Of a stretch of DNA of 64,000 nucleotides, positions 16,525 to 61,156 are shown piece after piece. A program made the position numbers and the translations under genes. How positions within the stretch are numbered: position 1 is the first letter of the stretch; every line of letters starts with the position of its first letter. The notes under the pieces were generated by a model, which worked only from the letters and a program-made list of their open reading frames with translations, ran no database searches and was not told the DNA's origin. The DNA comes from an uncultured Acidobacteriota bacterium (GTDB taxonomy: Bacteria > Acidobacteriota > Thermoanaerobaculia > Multivoradales > UBA5704), in assembly GCA_963832495.1 (NCBI GenBank), contig CAWHUF010000011.1:963242-1027241 (forward strand), given 5' to 3'.

Positions 16525-17928
16525 ATGATCGGCCAGCCGAGATCCTTCAAGCGGGTGCTGGAGCTCTTCCGGAACCCGGCGACGGCCGAGAAGAGCAGGA
16601 TTCTGAAGGACCGCTGGGCGGGGCTCGATCCCGAGCCTCCGTCTCCCCGGGCAGGGGCTGGGCCGGAAGGCGACCGGGTGCGGCGCTACGGTCGGCATCC
16701 AGCCCCGCTGCGACTTCTCCTGCACCGGCTGCTACCTCGGCCGCGAGGCCAACCAGCATCCCCGCCCTGCCCACCGAGGCCATCCTGCGCCAGCTCGACG
16801 AGCTGCGCCGCTGGCTGGGTCCCAAGAGCAACGTCCAGATCACCGACGGCGAGGTGACGCTGCGCCCCGTGGAGGAGCTGACCGAGATCCTCCGCTACGC
16901 CCGGTCGATCGGCGTCATCCCCATGGTGATGACCCACGGCGACAGCTTCCGCCGCCAGCCGGGCCTGCTGGAACGGCTGATGACGGAGGGGGGGCTGACC
17001 GAGGTCTCGATCCACGTCGACATCACCCAGCGGGGGCGGGACGGCTACCGCGTGCCGAAGTCGGAGCTGGAGCTGATGCCGTTGCGCGACGAGTTCGCGG
17101 CCATGGTGCGCGAGGCGCGCCGGCGGACGGGCCGGCCTCTGCGGGCCGCCATGACGCTCACGGTCACCCGGGACAACCTCCCCCAGATCGCCGACGTCGT
17201 GCGCTGGCTGGTCCGGAACCGCGACGCCTTCAGCCTGGTCAGCTTCCAGCCGCTGGCCCAGGTGGGACGGACACGGAAGAGCCAGCAGGGCGTGACGGCG
17301 GCCGAGCTCTGGCGCGAGGTCGGCCGGGGCACGGCGGGTTTCGGGCTCCCCCTCGAGAGCACGGGTCCGCTCCACTTCGGCCACACGGAGTGCACGCGCT
17401 TCGTCCCCCTGCTGGCCCTGGAGCGGCCGGGCGAGGAGCCCCGGCTCTTCCAGGCCTTCCGGGACGAGCCCGAGGACGTGGCCGTCGTCCAGGAGTTCTT
17501 CGAGCACGGCCTGGGCGGAGCGGCCTTCCGGGACGATCGATCTCCTGGAGAAGGTGGCCCGTGCCCTGGGGATGATCCGCACGGCGCCGGGCTGGCTCCT
17601 GGGCCGCGGCCGGCGCTGGGCGGCCGAGCGGTTCCGCGACGAGGCCGGGATCTCGCTCGCGCGCCTCGTCCTCGACAGCCTCCGGGGGCGCCTGCGGGTG
17701 GACGGCCTGACCCTGACGAGCCACCACTTCATGAGCCCGGAGGAGCTGCGGACCCCGCTCGGCCAGGAGCGGCTGGCCGCCTGCGTCTTCCGCCTCCCCT
17801 ACAAGGGCGAGATGGTGCCGATGTGCAAGATGAACGCGGACGGCGTGCGCGAAAGGTTCTACGCGGAGATTATTGAGGGGACGATTGAGGGGGCGATTGA
17901 GGGGGGCGAGGGCGGAGCGGTCCACTGA
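16525..17928 (+). pseudogene. Radical SAM domain protein with at least three frame disruptions
   Basis: CDFSCTGCY (Cx3Cx2C) found in frame b at about 16700. The N-terminus is in frame a, the body in frame c (IPALPTEAILRQLDELRRWLG...VMTHGDSF...), and the C-terminus in a fourth-segment frame (IDLLEKVARALG...HHFMSPEELRTPLG...MCKMNADGVRERFYAEI). Shifts near 16610-16630, 16745-16755 and 17525-17535. Confidence 0.6.
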
Positions 17929-18292
17929 AAAGATTGGCGAATTTTCGCCAGATCGCCTCCGGATCGAGATCGCGGACGACCCGGACCGGCCTGCCGCCCC
18001 GGCCGAATTCCACCCAGAGATTGGCATGAAGGTACGCCGAGGTCTCCCCCACGGTCACCAGAGACGGGCCGATCAGGTACGCCGCCGCCGCAAGATCAAA
18101 AACCGGGAAGCGCCGCGCCCCCCGAAGAAGGAGCGAGCGGCGGGACCACCGGGCGGCGTGGCGGCGCAGGAATCCCCACAGCTCGCCCTGCCCTTCTCCG
18201 AGCTCCCGGGGACCGGTCCGCAGCCGGCGGGCGACGTCCAGGGGCACGATCGAGGCGAAGACGGCGACGTTATCGGTGTCCGATGAGGAGCA
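17870..18292 (-). pseudogene. Remnant of an inosine-uridine-preferring nucleoside hydrolase (C-terminal third only, one extra nucleotide near the start)
   Basis: MLLI(D)TDNVAVFASIVPLDVARR...FDLAAAAYLIGPSLVTVGETSAYLHANLWVEFGRGGRPVRVVRDLDPEAIWRKFANL resembles the IU-NH C-terminal region (HDPLAVAYLIDPSLF...VDVD..FW). The N-terminal DxDxxxDD region is absent. Confidence 0.4.
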
Positions 18293-18632
18293 TGGTCCGC
18301 GCGGGCATCAGCCCCTGATCCGCGAGAAGCTACGGCCCGTCCACGGGACTGCGCCGCCCGTGCGCGGGCTCCAGCCGCTGGCGCTCGCCCTCCAGCGGCA
18401 GAAACTCGGGGGCCTGCACGGGCCGCTCAGGGGCGCGCGCCAGAAACTCGACCCCGCGCACGGGCCGCGCGAGCTCGCGCGGCAGAAACTCGGGGGCGAG
18501 CGCGGGCGGCTGGAGCCCGCGCACGAGCGGCACGAGGGCGTGCGGCGGAAACTCGGGGGCAAGTTTTTGCCGCACACCCCCGCGCGGTCCGTGCCGGCCG
18601 GCGGCGTTGTCGGTGTCGATGAGGAGCATGGT
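18270..18632. repeat. Repeat-rich low-complexity block bounded by two copies of TCGGTGTC(C)GATGAGGAGCATGG and containing 3-4 copies of GCGGCAGAAACTCGGGGGC
   Basis: Direct copies at 18270-18293 and 18610-18632. Internal motif copies at about 18394, 18438 (variant), 18479 and 18542. Protein translations are low-complexity (APEFLP / QKLGG repeats). Confidence 0.6.
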
Positions 18633-18648
18633 TGTTTATACTCCCGGC

Positions 18649-19983
18649 ATGCCCTTACCCGTCCACATCATCGGCGGCGGACTCGCCGGCTCGGAGTGCG
18701 CCTGGCAACTCGCGGAGCGCGGTATCCCCGTCGTCCTCCACGAGATGCGGCCGGTCAAGGGGACCCCGGCGCACAAGTCGGGCGACCTGGCGGAGCTGGT
18801 CTGCAGCAACTCGCTGCGGAGCGACGATCCGCTGCACGCCGCGGGGCTCCTCAAGCGGGAGATGGAGACGTTCGGCTCGATCATCATCGGCATGGCCCGG
18901 CGGGCGTCCGTGCCGGCCGGGAGCGCCCTGGCCCTGGACCGCGACCGCTTCGCCGCCCTGGTGACGGAGGCGATCGCCGGCCATCCCCGGATCGAGCTGC
19001 GGCGGGAAGAGGTGACGGAGATCCCGGAGGGCGAGGTGGTGATCGCGACCGGCCCCCTGACCTCCGAGGCCATGTCGGCCCGGCTCCAGGGGCTCCTCGG
19101 CAGCGAGTACCTCTACTTCTACGACGCCATCGCGCCCATCGTGGAGGCCGAGAGCCTCGACCTCTCGAAGCTCTTCTGGCAGTCGCGCTACGGCAAGGGA
19201 GAGGGGGCGGACTATCTCAACGCCCCCATGGACAAGGAGGAGTACCTCGCCTTCCACCGCGCGGTCACAGAGGCCGAGGTCGTGGCCCCGCACGAGTTCG
19301 AGAAGGCGGTGTTCTTCGAGGGGTGCCTGCCCATCGAGGAGCTGGCCCGGCGCGGGGTGGACACCCTGCGCTACGGCCCCATGAAGCCCGTGGGCCTGAC
19401 CGCTCCGGACGGCCGGCGGCCGTGGGCGGTGGTGCAGCTCCGGCAGGAGAACCTCGCCAAGAGCCAGCTCAACCTCGTGGGGTTCCAGTCGCGCATGAAG
19501 TGGGGCGAGCAGCAGCGCGTGCTGACGATGATCCCGGGGCTCGAAAATGCAAAATTCGTCCGCTTCGGGCAGATCCATAGGAACACCTTCATCAACGCGC
19601 CCACTCATCTCGACAAGCACTACCGGCTGAAGACTGATCCCCGGGTGCGCCTCGCGGGACAGATCACGGGCGTCGAGGGATACCTGGAGTCAGCCGCTAC
19701 GGGCCTCGCGATCGGCCTTTTTATCGCCATGGAACGGGAAGGCCGCACGCCCGAGCCGTTCCCGGCGACCACGGCCCTGGGGGCTCTGGCCCGGCACCTG
19801 ACGGAGTCCGATCCCAGGCACTTCCAGCCGGCCAACATCAACTACGGTCTGTTCGAGGATCTCCCGGGCCGGATCAAGAAAGTCGAGAAGCGGGCCGCCT
19901 ACGTGGAGCGGGCGCAGGCGGATCTGGCCGCCTGGGCGGAGAGTTATCTCCCAAATAAGGTCGTTCTCGCATGCGTCGTCTGA
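18649..19983 (+). CDS. trmFO: Methylenetetrahydrofolate--tRNA-(uracil-5-)-methyltransferase TrmFO (Gid)
   Basis: MPLPVHIIGGGLAGSECAWQLAERG... FAD-binding N-terminus. Intact ORF to 19983. TATACT hexamer about 10 nt upstream of the ATG. Confidence 0.85.
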   Translation: MPLPVHIIGGGLAGSECAWQLAERGIPVVLHEMRPVKGTPAHKSGDLAELVCSNSLRSDDPLHAAGLLKREMETFGSIIIGMARRASVPAGSALALDRDRFAALVTEAIAGHPRIELRREEVTEIPEGEVVIATGPLTSEAMSARLQGLLGSEYLYFYDAIAPIVEAESLDLSKLFWQSRYGKGEGADYLNAPMDKEEYLAFHRAVTEAEVVAPHEFEKAVFFEGCLPIEELARRGVDTLRYGPMKPVGLTAPDGRRPWAVVQLRQENLAKSQLNLVGFQSRMKWGEQQRVLTMIPGLENAKFVRFGQIHRNTFINAPTHLDKHYRLKTDPRVRLAGQITGVEGYLESAATGLAIGLFIAMEREGRTPEPFPATTALGALARHLTESDPRHFQPANINYGLFEDLPGRIKKVEKRAAYVERAQADLAAWAESYLPNKVVLACVV

Positions 19984-41703: not shown

Positions 41704-41795
41704 CCCTTCTCCTCCCCTGTTCCAAGTGTGCTGATACGGATGGGGACTGACTGAAGTTGCCGGAGGGATTCTACCCGAAGGCGCAATCGAAGCGG

Positions 41796-41940
41796 AAGAT
41801 CAGGCCTCGCAAAAAGATCAGGCCTCGCAAAAAGATCAGGCCTCGCAAAAAGATCAGGCCTCGCAAAAAGATCAGGCCTCTCAAAAGGTCAGGCCTCGCA
41901 AAAAGATCAGGCCTCTCAAAAGGTCAGGCCTCGTAGATGG
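41796..41940. repeat. Tandem repeat: about 8 copies of an 18-bp unit AAGATCAGGCCTCGCAAA
   Basis: Copies at about 41796, 41814, 41832, 41850, 41868 (variant), 41886, 41904 and 41922. The last copy contains the queD stop codon. Confidence 0.8.
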
Positions 41941-42691: not shown

Positions 42692-45672
42692 ATGAATTTT
42701 CTTCTATTCTCAAAGCGCGCCATTTCCCTCGCCGTTCTGCTGCTCGTCCTCGCCATGCCGGCGATGGCGCAGCTCCAGAGCGGCAACCTGCACGGCATCG
42801 CCGCGGGGGTGGAAGGCACGCCGATGCCCGGGGTCACCGTGACCCTGACGGGCGTCGGCGCTCCGCAGACCACGACCACGGACGAGCAGGGACGGTTCCG
42901 GTTCCTCGGTCTGTCGCCCGGCCTCTACACCGTCGAGAGCGCGCTCCAGGGCTTCGCGTCCGACCGGCGCGACAACGTCGAGATCAACGTCGGCCGCAAC
43001 ACCGAGGTCACGCTGACCGTGCGGGTCACGGACGTGATCGAGGTCCGCGGTGAACGGGCCGATGCTCCGTTGCTCGACACACGCCGCGTCGCCCAGAGCC
43101 AGACGGTCACGCTCACGGAGCTGGAGAGCATCCCCACGGCCCGCGATCCCTGGGCCGTCCTCAGCTCCATGCCGGGCGTGCTGACCGACCGCATCAACGT
43201 CGGCGGCAACGAGAGCGGCCAGCAGTCGCACGTTCGTCGGTCCCGGCTCCGGCGGCGACCAGGCCGTCTGGTCGCTCGACGGCATGGTGATCACCGACAT
43301 GTCGGCCATCGGCTCCTCGCCCGGCTACTACGACTTCGAGTCGTTCGAGGAGATGCAGGTGACGACCGGCGGCAGCGACGCCTCGATCGCCACCGGCGGC
43401 GTGGTGCTCAACATGGTCACCCGGCGCGGCGACAACGCAGTGGCGCGGCTCCGGCCGCTACGTGGTCTCGGACGACAGCATGCAGTCCGACCTCGAGTTC
43501 GACCGCGAGCGACCTCGGCCAGGCCGGCCCCTGGAACAACGGCAACGCCCAGACCGCCTTCAAGCAGGGCAACCGGATCGTCGAGAACGTCGGACTGACG
43601 GCGCCGAGCTCGGCGGCCCCGTCGTCAAGGACCGCCTGTGGGTCTGGGGCTCGTACGCCAAGCCGGAGATCCACCTGCTGACGATCGACGACTTCAGCGA
43701 CAAGACCACCCTCGAGGAGCTGGAACGCTCAAGCTGAACGCCCAGATCACGCCGAGCAACTCGGCGACCGCCTTCGCCTGGCAGAGCGACAAGGTCAAGA
43801 TCGGCCGCAACGCCAGCCCCACTGCGGCCCCAGGAGACCACCTGGAACCAGTCGAAATTCGGGCCCGATCCCGACGGCCTGGAAGGTGGAGGACACCCAG
43901 ATCTTCGGCACCAGCTTCTTCATCACCGGCATGTACTCGGTGGTCAACGGCGGCTTCCAGCTCGTGCCCCAGGGCGGCGACGGTGATCGCCTTACCGCGA
44001 TCGCCGGGCTGAAGTGGCACAACAGCTTCCTGCTCAACCAGATCGAGCGCCCCAGGAGCAGATCAAGGCCGACGCCTCCAACTTCTTCAACACCGGCGAC
44101 CTCTCCCACGAGCTCAAGTACGGCGCCGGCTACCGCACGGCCGAGCAGTCGTCGCTCTTCACGCTGGCCGGGCGGCGGCGTCGAGATCGTCCTGGGCAAC
44201 GGCAACTACCTGCTGGGCCTCGCCCGCGACGGCGGTGCCCGAGGTCGAAGACCGAGTACACCAACGCTCTACGTGCAGGACACGCTGGTCAAGGGCAACC
44301 TCACCGCCAACGTCGGCCTGCGCTACGACCGCCAGGGCGGCGAGAACCTGGCCTCCACCGTGCCGGCCAACCCGGTCTTCCCCGAGCTGCTGCCCGCCGG
44401 CCACTACGAGGGCGGCGACAGCCGGCTTCGAGTGGACGACGATCACTCCCCGCCTCGGCCTGACCTACGCCCTGGGCGCCCAGCGCAAGACCCTGCTGCG
44501 CGCCAGCTACTCGCGCTTCGCCGACCAGCTCGGCACCGGCGTCGCCGGCTTCCTCAACCCGCTCGGCGGGCTGCAGGCTACCGGCTACTTCTACACCACC
44601 AACAACGGCGGCCCCACCCTGGAGCCGGGCGAGCTCGGCCCCGAGTCCTCGGGCTCAGCGGCAACATCAATCCGATCACCTTCGAGCCGCTGCAGTCGAA
44701 CGCCGTGGATCCGAACCTCGACGCGCCGATCACCGACGAGCTCCTGCTCGGCATCGAGCACGCCCTGCGGCCGGAGCTTCGCTGGTGGGCCTGAACCTCA
44801 ACTACCGGCAGCTCCACCGGCATCCTCGAAGCCGAGCGCCTGGTCTTCGACGCGACGATCCGTTCTCCGACGAGAACCTCGGCACCGTCGGCCGCGTCCA
44901 CCGGCGGGACGACTACGTGCCGAGCGCACCTCAGATCCTTTCGTGGCCCCCGACGGCCGCACCTACACCGTGCACTACTGGGACCTGCGCGACGGCGTCA
45001 CCACCCGCAACGGCTTCCGGCTCGAGAACGGCGACCGCGAGCAGGAGTTCCTGGGCGCTTCGCTGACCTTCAACAAGCGGCTCGCCAACCGCTGGATGAT
45101 GCGCGGCAACGTCTCCTGGCAGGACTGGACGTGGAACATCCCCGACAGCGAGAACGAGGATCCGACCGACACCATCGGCCGGCGGCATGGTGGACGGCAC
45201 CGACGTGCTCCAGGGCTCGGGCACTCGTCTCCGGCGCCAAGGGCAACGTGTTCATCAACAGCACGTGGTCCTACAGCCTGAACGGCCTCTACCAGATCGC
45301 GCCCGACCGCCCCTGGGGCTTCAACGTCGCCGCGAACCTGAACGGCCGCCAGGGCTACCCGCTCCGCTACGTCGCGGCGCGTCAACCGTGCGGCGATCAG
45401 TGACAACGCCGGCAGTCGGCATCGACATCCCGATCGACTCCTCTCCGGACGCCTTCCGCTACCCCGACGTCCACGTGGTCGACCTGCGGGCCGAGAAGGA
45501 GTTCACCTTCAGCGACTTCGGCTTGACGTTGGGGATCGACCTGTTCAACGCCTTCAACGAGTCCTACGTGCTCCAGCGCCAGGGCGTCCTCGGGTTCAAC
45601 TCCTCCAACAGGGTGGTGGAGGTCCTGAGCCCGCGCGTCCTCCAGCTTGGAGCCCGTGTGAGCTTCCGTTAG
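42692..45672 (+). pseudogene. Oar-like TonB-dependent-receptor-like outer-membrane protein (CarboxypepD_reg N-terminal domain + plug-like + beta-barrel) with about 20 frame disruptions
   Basis: Signal MNFLLFSKRAISLAVLLLVLAMPAMAQ. GVTVTLTGVGAPQTTTTDEQGRFRFLGLSPGLYTV. ELESIPTARDPWAVLSSMPGV. Remaining pieces in alternating frames, homologous throughout to the minus-strand paralog 56853-59241. Ends ...LQLGARVSFR. Confidence 0.6.
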
Positions 45673-55055: not shown

Positions 55056-56832
55056 TCAGCGCCGGAGATACCGGTCCGCTTCGGCGAGCACCTCCTTCGG
55101 TGGCTCGGTGCAGCCTTTCTCACGGAGCAGCAGGGCCAGGTAGCCGCGCAGCAGGCCGGCGGCGTCCGCTTCCCGGAGGAGCTTCTCCAGAGACGGCGCG
55201 GCGGCGAGGGCCTGCTCCAGGGTGATCTTCGTCCAGCCAGCCCGCTGGATCTCGGCACAGAGGCTCTTCGCTTCGGCATCGGAGAGTGCCAAAGCCACCA
55301 TGTCGGTGATCACGACGCCGTCCACAGACCAGACAGCCTCGTCCCCTGGAGCGCCGGGACCCACATACATCGAGGACTGGCCGCTCTCGTTGCCCCCTAC
55401 ATTGATCCTGTCCCTGAGCACCCCAGGCGTGCTTTCGAGCACAGCCCAGGGATCCCGTGCCGTGGGGATCTTCTTCGAGCTCGGTCTGCGAGACGGTGGC
55501 ACTCGTGGTGATCCGGCGCGCGTCGAGCAGAGGCGACTCGGCGGTGACGGTGATGATGTCTTCTACAGGTGCATTGACCGGCAGCACGTGGCGTACGGGC
55601 TGGAGGCCGGACGGCGCGGTCTCCTCCGGGTCCACGGCCATGAGGCTGGTGTGGTCCGTGACCAGGTGGTGGCGCAGGCCGAGCGCGGTGATGCCGCGGC
55701 GCACCTCCACCGGGTCTCCGCCGTCGGCCAGGCTGTCCGACAGCCCCTGGATCTTCCGGCGCGCCCAGAGCTTGTCGATGCCGGCGCCCTTGAACTCTCC
55801 GGCCACCGCGAAGGAGTCCTGCCAGGCCGCGCCGCCCCGGAGCCCGGAGACGGTCACCGCCCCGTCGCCCTCCTCGAGACGGGCGGTGACCACCAGAGGA
55901 TCGCCCAGGTAGAGGTCGGGGACCCGCGAGGGCCACGCTTCCGCCGAAAGATCGCTCCACTGCACCTCGATCTGCCGGAGCATCGGCGATTCGAGCTGCG
56001 AGAACAGCGCGCCCATGGCCGCCTGGACGTTCCGGACGTCGGTGATCGCGGTGAACGATCCGCTTCCCAGATCCCCCAGCCGGCGCAGGAGCGGAACGTT
56101 GGGCGCCGCGCCGATCGCCACCGGGAAGAGCCGGCGGTTGCCCAGGTTCGACTTGAGGAACTGAACGACTTTCTCCTCGTCACCGAGTTGGCCGTCCGTG
56201 GCGAAGATCACCTGCGGCACCAGGCCGGCCGGCGCCGGTTTGCGGAAGGCGATCTGGAGCGCCGGGAGCATCATCGTGCCACCATCGGCATTGAGCCCGG
56301 TGATGAAGCGGCGAGCCTTTTCCAAGGCGTCCGGAGTCGCCGGCACGCTCTCTGGAAAGACGGAGGTGGCCGTCGAATCGAACTCGACGACGTTGAACCA
56401 GTCGCCCGCCTGGAGCTTGCCCAGACCGAACAGAAGCGCCTCCCGGGCCTGCGGCATCGAAGGTCCCTCCATCGAGCCCGAGGTGTCGATGATGAAGATG
56501 GTTTCCCGTGGCAGCCGGGACACCACGGCTCCCGGCGCGTCGGGCGGCATGACCATGAGCAGCGCGTACTTCTCACCGTCCACCTCTTCCGAATAGAACA
56601 CGGCCCGCGGCTCGCGGCCGATGTCCGGCGCCCAGTCTGAGGATGGGTTCTGAAAGATCTGCGTGACCTTCGTCCGGGCGATGATCCCGGTCACCCGCAC
56701 CTCGACGGTGGCGCCAAGGACGGGCGCCTCCGTTTCTCCGAAATACAAGCCCTGCTCAGCCCAGACAAAGTCGTTCGCAACGATCACCAGAAATAAAGAC
56801 AGCGCTAGCCTTTGAATCAGATTCGATCGCAT
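55056..56832 (-). pseudogene. Truncated tandem duplicate of the VIT-vWA-Oar fusion gene: vWA with internal VIT deletion + first about 60 aa of the receptor domain, then joined to an unrelated 80-aa C-terminal segment
   Basis: MRSNLIQRLALSLFLVIVA (GGAGG RBS; homologous to the start of the 59045-61156 copy). vWA DxSxS FIIDTSGSME. ...IITVTAESPLLDARRITTSATVSQTELEE / KKIPTARDPWAVLESTPGV... then VALALSDAEAKSLCAEIQRAGW.... Confidence 0.5.
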
Positions 56833-56852: not shown

Positions 56853-59800
56853 TCATCGCCAGGAAACTCTCAGGCCGAGCCGGCAGGTGCGCGGCGCGAC
56901 CTCATCATTCGCGAGGCCGGCCCGGCTCGTGCCGAGATCGGCCTCGCGCCAGAGGGTGGCGTCCTCGTTCAGCAGATTGAAGACGTCCAGGCCGAACGTC
57001 AGGTTGAAGTCACTGAGGGTGATCTCCTTCTCCAGCCGTGCGTCCACGGTGATGACGTCGTCCCCCCGCGAAGAGCCGATCTCCACGACGGGGACCCGTG
57101 CGAGCCCGGCCCGCTCGCGGACGACCTGCCGGTACCAGGCCGCCGGGTATCCCTCGCGGCCATTGACCGCGAGCCCGGCGTTGAACCCGGTGCTGAGGTG
57201 GGGGAAGAACTGGTAGAGGCCGTCCCAGTGGAACGACCAGCCGCCCAGGATGAAGCGGTCGGCCGCGTAGGGGCGGTCGAGCGCCGAGGCGGGCACGGCC
57301 ACGGGGTCGCCGTCACGGTCGCCGCCGCCCAGGGCGCGGGTGGGATCGTCGTAGCGCTCGAAGCCGGGGCCGACACGCCACGTCCAGTCGCTCCAGGTGA
57401 CGTGGCCGCGGGACATCCAGCGGTTCGAGAGCCGCTTGTTCAAGAGCAGGGAGAAGCCGAGGTAGTCCTGTTCCCGGTCGCCGTTCGTGAGGAGGGTGCC
57501 CCCGGTCCACGTGAGGCCCGGGCGCAGGTCAAAAACCGTTTCCGTCAAGGAGATCCAGTCGGCGGCCGTGGCGGCGAAAACCTTTCCATTTTCATCGCGC
57601 ACCAGGAGCCGCTCTTCGAGCACGTCCTGCGTCCGCCTCCAGGTACCCTGGAAACCGATCATGAGCTCATAGGAGAAGCTGTGCTCGACGCTGACCGCAA
57701 GCTCGTCCGTGATCTCCGGAGCCAGGTCCGAAGCGACGGCGTTGGGGTTGACGCCCAGGAGAGGATCGCGGTTGGCGCTGTACCAGGGCTGGTCTCCCTC
57801 GACCGTTGAGAAGAAGTACGACGTTGCGGAGACATTGGGATCGAGCCGGAACGCCGGCGCCGTGCCGAGCCGCGAAGCGAACCGGGAGAGCGACGTCCTC
57901 AGCAAGGTGCTCCTCTCGGGTCCGAGCGCCCAGTTCAGCCCGAGCCGGGGTGACAGGGTCTGGGGCCTGATGTCTCCAGAAGGTTGGCCGGGGATCCCCA
58001 GGTCCTGCTCGTCGAAGCGGAGCCCCAGGGTGAACGTCGCATTGCCCAGGGTGGCGATGTCCTGCACCCAGGCGCTCGCCGTTTCCGTCTCCGTCCTCAC
58101 TTCCCCGCTGCTCCAGACCTCCACCACCCTGGCGTTGCCGGGCTCCAGGGTCTCCTCCGCGATCTCGATCCGGCCCGGAGCCGTGAGGAGGGTCCGGCTG
58201 TCCTGTCCGCGCCACGAAAGCCCCGCCTTCAGCTCATGGGAAAGCTCGCCGGTGTTGAAGAAGTGGCTCCCCGTGAGCCTCGGCGATCTCCGTCCGGTGG
58301 TCCTCGGCAAAACCGAACCACGTCCCCTGGGCAACGCCCGCGGGATCGATCCGCGCCTCTCCCGCCAATCCCCCCAGCGGGACGTCGCTCTGGGTTTGAT
58401 CGATGCTCCCCCACTGGCCGCTCACATAAAAGTTGGCGGTGAAGATGTGCGTGTCCTCGATCTTCCAGATTTCATCCCGGACATCCCGGTCCCAGGTGGT
58501 CTCCGGTGCGCGGGCCGGAGAGGCCCCCAGTCCCAGGATCGAGGCGTCTCCCCGCTTCCAGAACAGGGTGGCCGAGTTGTGCTCGCCGGGTTGGCTGTTC
58601 AGCTTGAACGATCCATTTTCGAGGAGGGTTTCCTGCCGCTGGCCACCCAGGACGTTGCTGTCGGTCTCGTCGCGCTGGAGCGATCCCCACGCCCAGAGCC
58701 GGTCCCGGCGGAGCGGCCCTCCCAATTCGGCGCTGCCGCTGTCGAGCTTTTCGATCCCGTTGTCCCTGGCTTCCTGAAGAGCGTCTCCGCCCCAGAGGAA
58801 CTGGCCCGAGCCGCGCCACTCGTTGGTGCCTCGCTTGGTGACCATATTGACGTGCACGCCAGGGGTCTCCAGAACCGCGTCCGCGCCGCCGGTCGTGACG
58901 GTGACCTCCTCGTAGCTGTCGTAGTCGTAATACGCGGGAGAAGATCCCAGAGCGCTCATGTCCGTGACCGCGAAACCGTCGACCACCCAGGTGTTCTGAT
59001 CGCCCGCAGCTCCCTGCCCCACGGCAACCGTGGGCTGGCCGCTCTCATCGCCGCCCACGCTGACGCGGTCCGTGAGGACGCCCGGCGTCGACTGCAGCAC
59101 GGTCCAGGGATCGCGAGACGTGGGGATCTTCTTCGAGCTCGGTCTGCGAGACGGTACAGCTCTGGGTGATCCGGCGCTCGTCGAGCAGAGGGCTTTCGGC
59201 GGTGACGGTGATGCAGTCCTGCACTCCGTCGTCGTAGGCAAAGCCCCCGGAGCCCCGCGGCGGATTCACCGGCACGGTACGGATCGCCGGCAAGACGCCG
59301 TTCGGAGCCGAAGCCACCACGTCCACGGCGACCAGGCTGGTATAGCCCGTGACCAGGTGGTGGCGCAGGCCGAGCTCGACGATCGTGCGGCGGAGCTCAT
59401 CGGCCTCCGTGGCATTGATACCGTTTCCCAAATAGGCGCTGTCCAGAAGGGAATCGATCTTCTTCTTCGCCCACAGCTTGTGGATGCCCGCGGTGCCTGC
59501 GGTGCCTGCGCCATGGATCTCGGCCGCTTCGGGGAACGAGTCCTGCCAGAATTCGCCGCCGCGCCGGCCCGAGACCTCGACTGGCCCGGAAGAGGACCCG
59601 CGCCTTGCCACGACAGTCAGCGGCTCGCCCAGATAAAGGTCGGGAATCCGTGCGGGCCACATCTCGGCCGCCGGATCAGCCCAGCGGATTTCGAGGTCCC
59701 GGAGCATGGGCGCTTCGAGTTGGGCGAACAGGGCGCCCATGCGCTCGGCCACTTCCGAGACGCTGGAAACGTGAGTGAATGTGCCACGGCCGAGATCCGC

Positions 59801-61156
59801 TGATTTCCGCAGGAACGAGACGTTCGGGGCCGATCCGATCGCCACGGTGAACAGCCGCCGCTCGCCCAGGTGCTTGCCGAGGTATTGATAGACCTCCGCC
59901 TCGTTGCTGATCTGCCCGTCGGTCACGAACATGATCTGCCGCACGAGGCCTTCCGGGGGTGCCGGCCGCCTGAGGGGGACCACGGGCGCCTTCTCTTCGA
60001 GGGCCAGCGTCACTCCCGCGAGGATGTTGGTGCCGCCGTCCGCGCGGAGACTTTCGACGTACCGCCGGGCTGTCTCCAGGGTTCCTGGCTCCACCGGAAC
60101 GCTGTCGGGAAAGAGGACTGACGCGTCCGAGCTGAACTGGATGACGTTGAACCAGTCGCCCGGCTGGAGCCGGTCCAGAGCCAGCAGAAGGGCCTTTCGC
60201 GCCTGCCGCATGGACGCGCCTTCCATGGAGCCGGAGGTGTCGATGATGAACACCGCCTCACGCGGGAGCCGCGCCGCGACCGCTTCGGGAGCGTCCGGCG
60301 GCATCACCATGAGCAGGTCGTAGCGCTCGCCATCCAACTCTTCCGAATAGAAGACGGCCCGCGGCTCCCGGCCCACTTCCGGAGTCCACTCCAGGATGAA
60401 ATCGCTGTCCGCCATCGCCACGCTCCGGGCCAGGTCCACCGCGTAAATGTGATTCGCACCCTTTGCGACGGTGATTCCATGGGAGGGGCTCGCCACCCGG
60501 CCGAGCGGGAAGCCCGTTGCGAGATCCACGTGAAAGCCGAACGGGTTCGCGGGTGCCGATCCGGCCGGCAGCACCGGAGGATTCATGAGCGGCCCCTCGT
60601 GCGACTTGCTCGCGGCAACGCTGATCCACGGCGGGCTGTACCGGGGCGCGACGACCATGGGGAACCGCAGCCGGAACCGTCCCGCCTCCCAGCGCACGAT
60701 CTGCTGCATTTCGATCACGATTTCGACCGTTTCTCCCGGGCCGATGTTGGCCACGGAGGTCGTGAACACGTCGGTCCTCTGCTGTTCGATCAGAGACGCC
60801 TTGCGTCCTTCCTGCTTGGCCGTCTCATAGGTCCGCTTGGCCGCCGCCTTCTCCTGGATTTCGCCCACGACGAGGCGATCTCCGATCTTCATCTTCAACG
60901 TATCGACGGCCGCGTCCTCGGGCAATGGAAATATATAAATACCTTCCACCCAGTCCCGGGCCGGATTCCTGAAGATCTGTGTGACCTTGGCGCGGGCGAT
61001 GACGCCCGTGACCTTGACTTCCACCGTGGAACCGAGCACGGGAGCGGGCTCAGCCCCTTGTCCCTTGAAGAACAGGCCCTGCTCGGCCCGCGCCGCACCG
61101 GCTCCGATCAGGACGAGCAGGCAAAGCTCCGCCACTCGAATGAAGATCGATCTCAT
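56853..61156 (-). CDS. VIT-vWA domain N-terminal module fused to an Oar-like TonB-dependent-receptor-like beta-barrel (about 1430 aa; two apparent frame disruptions at about 59150 and about 58290)
   Basis: Signal MRSIFIRVAELCLLVLIGAGAARA. VIT-like region (VEVKVTGVIARAKVTQIF...RLRFPMVVAPRY). vWA (VFIIDTSGSMEG..., MFVTDGQISNE). Then ITVTAESPLLDERRITQSCTVSQTELEE-(K)IPTSRDPWTVLQSTPGVLTDRV... continuing through the barrel to ...CRLGLRVSWR. Confidence 0.55.

Follow-up and report, generated by a model that had tools for sequence, protein, structure and literature searches.

Bacterial genomes harbour several described kinds of short repeats and repeat-driven rearrangements, against which the locus reported here can be read. 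Mycobacterial interspersed repetitive units (MIRU), which we consider together with variable-number tandem repeats (VNTR), are tandem units of 40-100 nt, with a length that is a multiple of 3, interspersed in mycobacteria, while quasipalindrome-templated mutation and template-switch rearrangements have been described in E. coli and phage T4. A further piece of background is enzymatic: in the inosine-uridine (IU) nucleoside hydrolases, an aspartate cluster of the form DxDxxxDD serves in calcium and ribose binding. These subjects meet in a 64,000-nt stretch of contig CAWHUF010000011.1 from an uncultured Acidobacteriota bacterium (hereafter the window, meaning the whole 64 kb), where a gene of the IU-nucleoside-hydrolase family beside the divergent trmFO has lost its central part and carries, between two copies of its own start, a GC-rich block of tandem repeats. 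We think it probable that this is a gene-decay locus, a pair of decaying genes into which a repeat element was inserted and in which a microhomology deletion took place; the overall phenomenon, repeat DNA within a decaying gene plus such a deletion, is an ordinary one. The two copies of the gene start are called X1 (distal to the hydrolase remnant) and X2 (proximal), and L022 and L021 are two loci elsewhere with related repeats. The parts of the locus are as follows, in window positions and with the basis of each assignment in brackets.

17870-18261, minus strand: C-terminal third of the IU-nucleoside-hydrolase-family gene (nhmmer profile, PF01156, homologue identity)
18262-18296, minus strand: X2, proximal copy of ACC, ATG and about 10 codons, MLLI(+1 nt)DTDNVA (repeat search, nhmmer)
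18297-18598, no strand assigned: GC-rich repeat element of 302 nt, member of a dispersed family (repeats, L022 colinearity, L021 array)
18297-18360: left spacer of the element
18361-18582: core of the element, colinear with L022
starts at 18395, 18437, 18479 and 18542: 42-nt tandem units with the GCGGCAGAAACTCGGGGG motif
18521-18553 and 18562-18594: arms of the element's terminal hairpin
18353-18531, no strand assigned: window-specific palindrome, left arm 18353-18395, right arm 18489-18531
18597-18632, minus strand: X1, distal copy, ACC ATG and onwards, MLLIDTDNAAG (nhmmer, gene positions 1-33 at 18629-18597)
18649-19983, plus strand: trmFO, 444 aa, intact, divergent from the hydrolase start (PF01134 GIDA, E = 1e-92)
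16525-17928, plus strand: radical-SAM gene, convergent with the hydrolase (tblastn, synteny)

The block between X1 and X2 has a G+C content of 77% and is built of regular units. A 19-mer, GCGGCAGAAACTCGGGGGC, occurs at 18395 and 18479, at 18542 with one mismatch and at 18437 in degenerate form, the three matches comparing with 0.07 expected by chance. The original prediction, made from the sequence alone, had counted 3-4 copies and described their spacing as irregular; the copies in fact follow at 42, 42 and 63 nt, each of them a multiple of 21, and Tandem Repeats Finder (TRF) reports a period of 42 over 18395-18522 with 3.0 copies (about 5 by eye). Related repeats are found at loci in unrelated genomic contexts. 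Positions 4990-5211 of L022 are colinear with 18361-18582 of the window over 222 nt, at 74% identity and with no indels (E = 5e-47), in an intergenic region between genes unrelated to the window locus, and both sequences share the terminal hairpin module GCGGCGGAAACTCGGGGGC(A/G)AG(T/A)TTTTGC(C/G)GCAC. L021, flanked by a polysaccharide-deacetylase gene and a Uma2 gene, is a 42-nt tandem array of about 5-7 units with the GCGGCAGAAACTC(A/G)GGGG motif as in the window; TRF finds 4.9 copies with an 84-nt super-period there, and about 4 copies of period 42 in L022. The colinearity with L022 and the unit shared with L021, both at unrelated loci, place the block in a small family of dispersed tandem-repeat elements. 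Further arrays are known as translations (P0019-P0021): a scan of the opposite-strand translation, with its RQKLGG repeats, against 1.84 billion cluster representatives gave three weak matches, to which a profile search added two. Four elements, those of the window, of L021, of L022 and of the P0021 contig, share one orientation and adjoin the 5' side of a minus-strand gene start, which is no more than suggestive of a habitual position upstream of genes.

Where the block came from was approached from several sides. An origin in the hydrolase's own middle was rejected, as a DNA profile of 11 orthologous genes, run with nhmmer at maximum sensitivity over both strands of the whole window, finds nothing for nt 34-432 of the gene; nor was a source found elsewhere in the window, in plasmids, in phages or in viral contigs. 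The block is not derived from the hydrolase and is probably the insertion of a pre-existing element. The exact 19-mer has single matches in 6 unrelated genomes among the GTDB representatives, about chance by rough estimate, which argues against an abundant genome-wide repetitive extragenic palindromic (REP) element, the scan being insensitive because the units vary. The genome-wide check that the prediction had proposed therefore came out on both sides, with a dispersed family at unrelated loci and no common REP in any GTDB representative genome. Rfam 15 gave no match at E <= 1 in 17000-19500, none at gathering score across the window and none relevant in L021 or L022, and the core motif is absent from the searched literature; the family appears to be undescribed.

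One feature of the block is private to the window. The arms of its palindrome are 88% complementary and the block folds with z-scores of -4.7 to -6.6 (about -5.5), whereas shuffled sequences fold just as well as L022 and L021 (z = -0.05 for L022; 0.06 and -0.14). The left arm is 74% identical to the reverse complement of the right arm of L022 and only 65% identical to its own positional homologue there, and the palindrome looks like an inverted templated copy, left by quasipalindrome correction or by a fold-back template switch. A conserved RNA structure was also considered. The RNAalifold consensus of window and L022 keeps all of its 62 pairs, 11 of them with compensatory changes. We give this consensus no weight. 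It was obtained from these two sequences themselves, even slid controls have 31-51% of cells paired in DNA so rich in GC, and L022 and L021 do not fold better than their shuffles.

Set beside the known systems, the element resembles MIRU/VNTR minisatellites in kind more than it does REP sequences and bacterial interspersed mosaic elements (BIMEs), miniature inverted-repeat transposable elements (MITEs) or clustered regularly interspaced short palindromic repeats (CRISPR). As in MIRU/VNTR, there are dispersed intergenic tandem arrays with units in the range of 40-100 nt, found in three unrelated contexts beside gene starts or ends, whose copy number and unit order vary by locus. The resemblance is one of kind only. 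The sequences are not similar, the arrays belong to an uncultured high-GC soil bacterium and close with a conserved hairpin module, and here the array lies within a disrupted gene and is flanked by a duplication of 34-36 nt. With REP, BIME and REPIN sequences, which are mobilised by REP-associated tyrosine transposases (RAYTs), the element shares GC-rich, hairpin-forming intergenic repeats in direct and inverted units, but its unit consensus, GCGGCAGAAACTCGGGGG(T/C)GCGCACGGGCCGCAC..., lacks a GTAG-type head, and its strong palindrome is not conserved in the family. Nothing points to copies in the tens to hundreds: the window holds one copy, to be set beside the single 19-mer matches in six GTDB genomes from a scan that is insensitive to variants. 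No RAYT gene turned up, no search aimed at RAYT genes having been made. The likeness to MITEs lies in the size of about 300 nt, the non-coding character, the direct target duplication on both sides and the short terminal inverted repeats CCGCGCGGG (18297-18305) and CCCGCGCGG (18579-18587). Inverted termini of 9-16 nt are, however, weak for DNA of 77% GC, the duplication compares with 2-10 nt in MITEs and is absent at L021 and L022, and the interior is a tandem array. A CRISPR array is not what we see, since with a period of 42 and inter-motif segments 65-78% alike the block is a tandem repeat and not an alternation of repeats and spacers. Finally, the locus shares with quasipalindrome-templated events the conversion of one arm of an imperfect palindrome towards complementarity with the other, as well as a microhomology deletion and a short direct duplication beside hairpin-prone sequence; it differs in that all of this is read from the end product alone, with no intermediate or polymorphic state.

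What is duplicated is the beginning of the hydrolase gene. Read on the minus strand, the segment comprises ACC, ATG and the codons for MLLIDTDNAAG (about 10-11 codons), from 18632 to 18597 in X1 and from 18296 to 18262 in X2, in imperfect copies, X2 departing from X1 by two substitutions and an added base (CC at 18280-18281 on the plus strand, an extra G on the minus strand). The original prediction had seen here a pair of 23-mers; they are real, at 18273-18295 and 18610-18631 (the first had been placed about 3 nt off), and belong to a segment whose true length is 34-36 nt. It had also suspected that MLLIDTDN might be a true N-terminus, and so it is, intact homologues starting MLLIDTDNAAGSPRGDVDD. 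The 22-mer core of the duplication is unique within the window, where 0 chance matches are expected. On both sides the likeness of X1 and X2 ends sharply, the neighbouring 100-120 nt aligning no better than shuffles, and a longer duplication (>35 nt) that took in the 5' end of trmFO was rejected on the same grounds, alignment scores equalling those of shuffled sequence. In the nhmmer search X1 matches gene positions 1-33 and X2 weakly matches nt 1-37.

Which of the two copies is in its original place can be read from relatives of the whole locus. In L012 (JGI Ga0126313), the closest relative with both flanks and an intact 278-aa gene, the hydrolase ATG and the start of the divergent trmFO are 19-20 nt apart, linked by the GGGAGTATAAAC spacer that also precedes X1, and L015 has the same adjacency of trmFO, spacer and ATG. 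As the intact genes adjoin trmFO in this way, X1 is the authentic, ancestral start of the hydrolase, and judged by this synteny it is in its native position, with the native GGGAG kept before it. The original claim that the block sits directly beside trmFO is borne out, the trmFO start (18649) being 19 nt from the X1 ATG. A second relative, L001, which comes from the same Logan sample as L021, has a start copy that extends one codon beyond the X2 of the window (...AAGS) and matches the intact gene there. This suggests that X2 once headed a complete gene and that X1 is the extra copy; it likewise suggests that an intact gene received the element and the duplicated target ahead of it or inside its first 36 nt, with the internal deletion coming later. 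No flanking direct repeats were found at the L021 and L022 elements, which makes the 34-36-nt duplication specific to this locus and not a footprint of the family.

What is lost from the hydrolase is its centre. Positions 433-793 of the 11-gene profile match 18265-17920 (E = 2e-72), confirming the earlier observation that the proximal copy runs into the C-terminal third of the gene, while nt 34-432 have no match on either strand of the 64 kb. The original prediction was thus right to tie an insertion or duplication to the loss of the catalytic part and wrong about its extent, as the missing portion is not the N-terminal two-thirds but about codons 12-145 of 278, with the first 11 codons surviving twice. 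The remnant, which reads ...AVFAS-IVPLDVARR... to a stop at 17870-17872, also lacks about 15 nt (the DLPLT codons) present in intact orthologues. Reconstructed as 140 aa, it scores 18.1 bits against PF01156 (E = 0.0023, profile positions 182-296), below the gathering cut-off of 34.2 bits, and its orthology to intact family members is carried by sequence and synteny together. Its relatives form a clade of short IU-nucleoside-hydrolase-like proteins (242-278 aa) that start MLLID(S/T)DNA.GS..GDVDD, to which it is 58-81% identical, with homologues that reach 73-81%, the upper value being the amino-acid identity to L012 across the C-terminal third. At the nucleotide level, window and L012 are 83% identical over 16791-18252, across the radical-SAM gene and on through the hydrolase's C-terminal third, the L012 flank is 89% identical to the window, and the gene order DUF547, radical SAM, hydrolase, trmFO is common to window and relatives. 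The L012 protein is a full-length member of PF01156, the family of RihA, RihB and IunH (90.9 bits, positions 2-296), and matches solved IU-nucleoside hydrolases (E = 1.8e-9). The clade as a whole differs from that family in being short (242-278 aa vs about 310), and the window copy differs further in having neither the aspartate cluster nor the central two-fifths. In intact relatives the N-terminal cluster reads DTDNAAGSPRGDVDDAFA, of which the window keeps DTDN alone, in X1 and in X2. The window product cannot be an active hydrolase, since by what is known of the family the missing 400 nt or so encode this cluster and the central sheet of the fold. At the junction, ...AACGTCGCCG passes directly into TCTTCGCC..., a sequence compatible with a deletion between two GCCG motifs by microhomology.

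The remaining relatives place this loss among other states of the same gene. The radical-SAM genes of L001 and the window are 92% identical, and L001 has a different in-frame deletion inside its hydrolase, joining MILIDTDNAAGS to RLRIGPREL and leaving a 128-aa open reading frame (ORF). The 47 nt 5' of its ATG differ from the native trmFO spacer. In L010 an otherwise full-length hydrolase copy carries a frameshift and a stop; at 5535-6370 of L010/L013 this orthologue is broken by the frameshift at ...LALGP/LTNL... and by the in-frame stop in HRNL-stop-LEFG, which indicates that the gene is decaying in another lineage too. Within the window, the neighbouring radical-SAM gene is split by three 1-nt insertions (at about 16630, 16755 and 17537) into three frames, each 91-93% identical in amino acids to the intact 450-aa orthologue of L001 (tblastn). 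The extra G that the prediction had pointed out in X2 is there, at 18280-18281, and brings the 1-nt insertions in this 1.8 kb (16630-18281) to four; as ORFs of 976, 787 and 987 aa in other parts of the window run without a break, these insertions reflect either very recent decay of the gene pair or a local assembly error. The boundary between the divergent trmFO and hydrolase starts is itself a synteny breakpoint among the relatives, taken up by unrelated genes where it is wide. L012 and L015 have the two starts 19-20 nt apart; L016 has about 1 kb of unknown ORFs between them, L018 about 2.6 kb that include an MMPL transporter gene, and L010 and L014 >4 kb, which in L014 include a PD40 beta-propeller gene.

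The anatomy, the homologies, the block's place in a repeat family and the loss of the catalytic part are shown directly; beyond them, the parts can be ordered into a history that we infer from the end product, including its sequence of steps, the template-switch mechanism and the lack of coding capacity and function in the element. The ancestral state would have been a 278-aa IU-nucleoside-hydrolase-family gene starting 19-20 nt from the divergent trmFO start. An element of about 300 nt, an array of 42-nt (2 x 21) GC-rich units with a conserved end hairpin, would then have lodged at the 5' end of the gene, so that the target's opening 34-36 nt (ACC ATG to codon 11) came to stand on both of its sides, X1 remaining beside trmFO and X2 heading the remaining gene. 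A deletion of about 400 nt would later have joined X2 to the C-terminal third at the GCCG microhomology, removing the aspartate cluster and the central sheet, and the 1-nt insertion in X2 and the deletion of about 15 nt presumably came afterwards. As the common cause of the palindrome, the flanking duplication and the deletion we favour replication template switching at an array prone to slippage and hairpins, or else the repair of a staggered break there. The link between the repeat block and the truncation stands, because the block sits exactly where the missing gene segment was. Several points nevertheless weigh against this account of decay by insertion and deletion. The full arrangement of X1, element and X2 occurs in one assembly only, and mobility is read solely from three unrelated locations, since a hidden Markov model of the unit met with no other copy in the window nor, L021 and L022 apart, in the 22 loci examined. 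A duplication of 34-36 nt, moreover, far exceeds usual transposition footprints and is no property of the family. That L001 shares the insertion is weakly suggested by the 16 nt before its ATG, which match the end of the window element at 14/16 positions when anchored on the ATG; a free local alignment of the two lacks significance, its score being reached by 92 of 1000 shuffles. Lastly, the C-terminal remnant does not have the look of neutral sequence: the deletions of window and L001 are both in frame if the extra G is ignored, and the ratio of non-synonymous to synonymous rates (dN/dS) between the two remnants is 0.24, at dS = 0.38 over 98 codons.

These last observations are also the starting point for a different reading, in which the gene has been remodelled rather than lost: the element would be a portable promoter or 5' leader and the X2 ORF (128-140 aa), in which the N-terminal 10-12 residues are joined to the last third of the hydrolase, an expressed and selected mini-protein. 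We regard this as unlikely. In its favour stand the low dN/dS, the L001 branch with 14 synonymous vs 7 non-synonymous changes, the intact 128-aa ORF called as a gene in L001, the two different in-frame junctions, and the constant orientation of the element 5' of minus-strand gene starts. Against it, the extra base of the window copy shifts the frame, X2 is preceded by no obvious ribosome-binding site where X1 has its GGGAG, the window branch shows 6 synonymous vs 9 non-synonymous changes, and the G+C content at third codon positions of the remnant (0.75) is below that of neighbouring genes (0.91-0.94). To our knowledge, a third of an alpha/beta fold without the metal-binding aspartate cluster has no stand-alone function. 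The dN/dS value itself can be read either way. If the truncation is older than the split of window and L001, it would mean purifying selection on the mini-ORF; should the two deletions instead be recent events, each on its own, as their different junctions allow, a low ratio is also expected and the value is uninformative. Intact gene pairs show the same range (0.14-0.36). A more far-reaching version, to which we give less credence again, would make the 42-nt arrays undescribed mobile 5' cassettes of uncultured high-GC soil bacteria that carry a promoter or leader and insert by start codons with duplications of about 35 nt, here re-heading the hydrolase as the selected mini-protein of 128-140 aa. 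Returning to decay by insertion and deletion, its evidence could also be the product of an assembly artefact, in which strain variants or a mis-joined repeat were concatenated so that the start was duplicated and the block placed between the copies. The four single-base insertions relative to relatives, the occurrence of the complete arrangement in a single assembly and the end of the L001 contig 47 nt 5' of its ATG would fit such an error, which we nonetheless judge very unlikely: the unbroken long ORFs indicate that the assembly is not generally indel-rich, the block is a bona fide sequence family in independent data sets, a Logan contig of SRR25722061 has an internally deleted gene with upstream sequence unlike the native trmFO spacer, and X1 and X2 differ at 3 positions, which is unexpected for a concatenated bubble.

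The remaining alternatives concern the block itself. The original prediction let the distal copy continue into APEFLP repeats, and a real repeat protein, encoded by this 99-aa ORF or by the RQKLGG ORF on the opposite strand, would make the event a gene fusion or the birth of a de novo gene. Both frames are indeed open across the block, their codon-position GC is gene-like (0.92/0.54/0.88 and 0.87/0.53/0.92), and P0017-P0021 are called as ORFs in the RQKL frame, three of them (P0018, P0019 and P0020) ending in a similar ...GLS(G/H). Open frames, however, are the rule at 77% GC, and the codon periodicity carries little weight because it is inherited from a single 42-nt unit, which is its effective sample size. 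The mismatches between window and L022 pile on codon position 2 of exactly the two open frames (30/57, p = 0.008), with amino-acid identity in these frames down to 48-52% at 74% nucleotide identity. The 99-aa ORF, read from the X1 ATG through the block, matches itself alone among 5.8 billion protein clusters, the block has no Pfam match, and the profile matched 5 proteins at E <= 0.01 among 8000 candidates scored from that collection. The block is probably non-coding, with the caveat that repeat units are not independent of one another, and the APEFLP repeats most likely belong to no protein; we would put the chance of a real repeat protein slightly lower than that of a faulty assembly. The least probable of the explanations, in our view a highly improbable one, is that the block was made de novo at the locus by iterative template switching or slippage during break repair. 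Internal direct and inverted repeats, the templated palindrome arm and the microhomology at the deletion junction would all fit such a process, but the block is colinear, terminal hairpin included, with an element at an unrelated locus of another organism, and no source sequence for it is present in the window; on the strength of the L022 alignment, a de novo origin seems largely refuted.

In this light, the locus is a well-resolved example of the decay of a dispensable gene, through repeat insertion, microhomology deletion and frameshifts, with sister lineages that display intact, frameshifted and alternatively deleted states. The modest new ingredient is the repeat family, with its 42-nt units, its conserved terminal hairpin and its position, so far always just 5' of gene starts. 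If the family proves abundant in uncultured soil genomes, it could serve as a marker for typing or for assembly breakpoints and would be a candidate regulatory or recombinogenic element, while the arm conversion of the window palindrome offers a clean natural case of templated mutation.

The insertion also has a bearing on trmFO, whose promoter must now sit within X1 and the element; no sigma-70 promoter or terminator was found inside the block. The trmFO frame is open for 110 codons 5' of its ATG, across the whole repeat block (18319-19983), which we take as a chance effect of high GC, as the codon-position GC there (0.53/0.92/0.87) is not gene-like. On the other side of the remnant, where the 3' ends of the radical-SAM gene (plus strand) and the hydrolase remnant (minus strand) overlap, a 12-nt tandem repeat ATTGAGGGGGCG occupies 17872-17905 in 2.8 copies, so that one product gains IEG repeats and the other PPQS repeats; L001 lacks this repeat. 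L001 in turn has, at 468-1418, an extra 316-aa ORF with no Pfam match between its hydrolase remnant and radical-SAM gene, which is absent from the window. Elsewhere in the window, a near-perfect 18-nt tandem repeat AAAAGATCAGGCCTCGCA of about 8 copies (41794-41939) is unrelated to the block, and a diverged direct duplication of about 1.3 kb (55289-56561 and 58947-60315, 71-75% identity), presumably of paralogous genes, has related inverted matches at 43125-43306.

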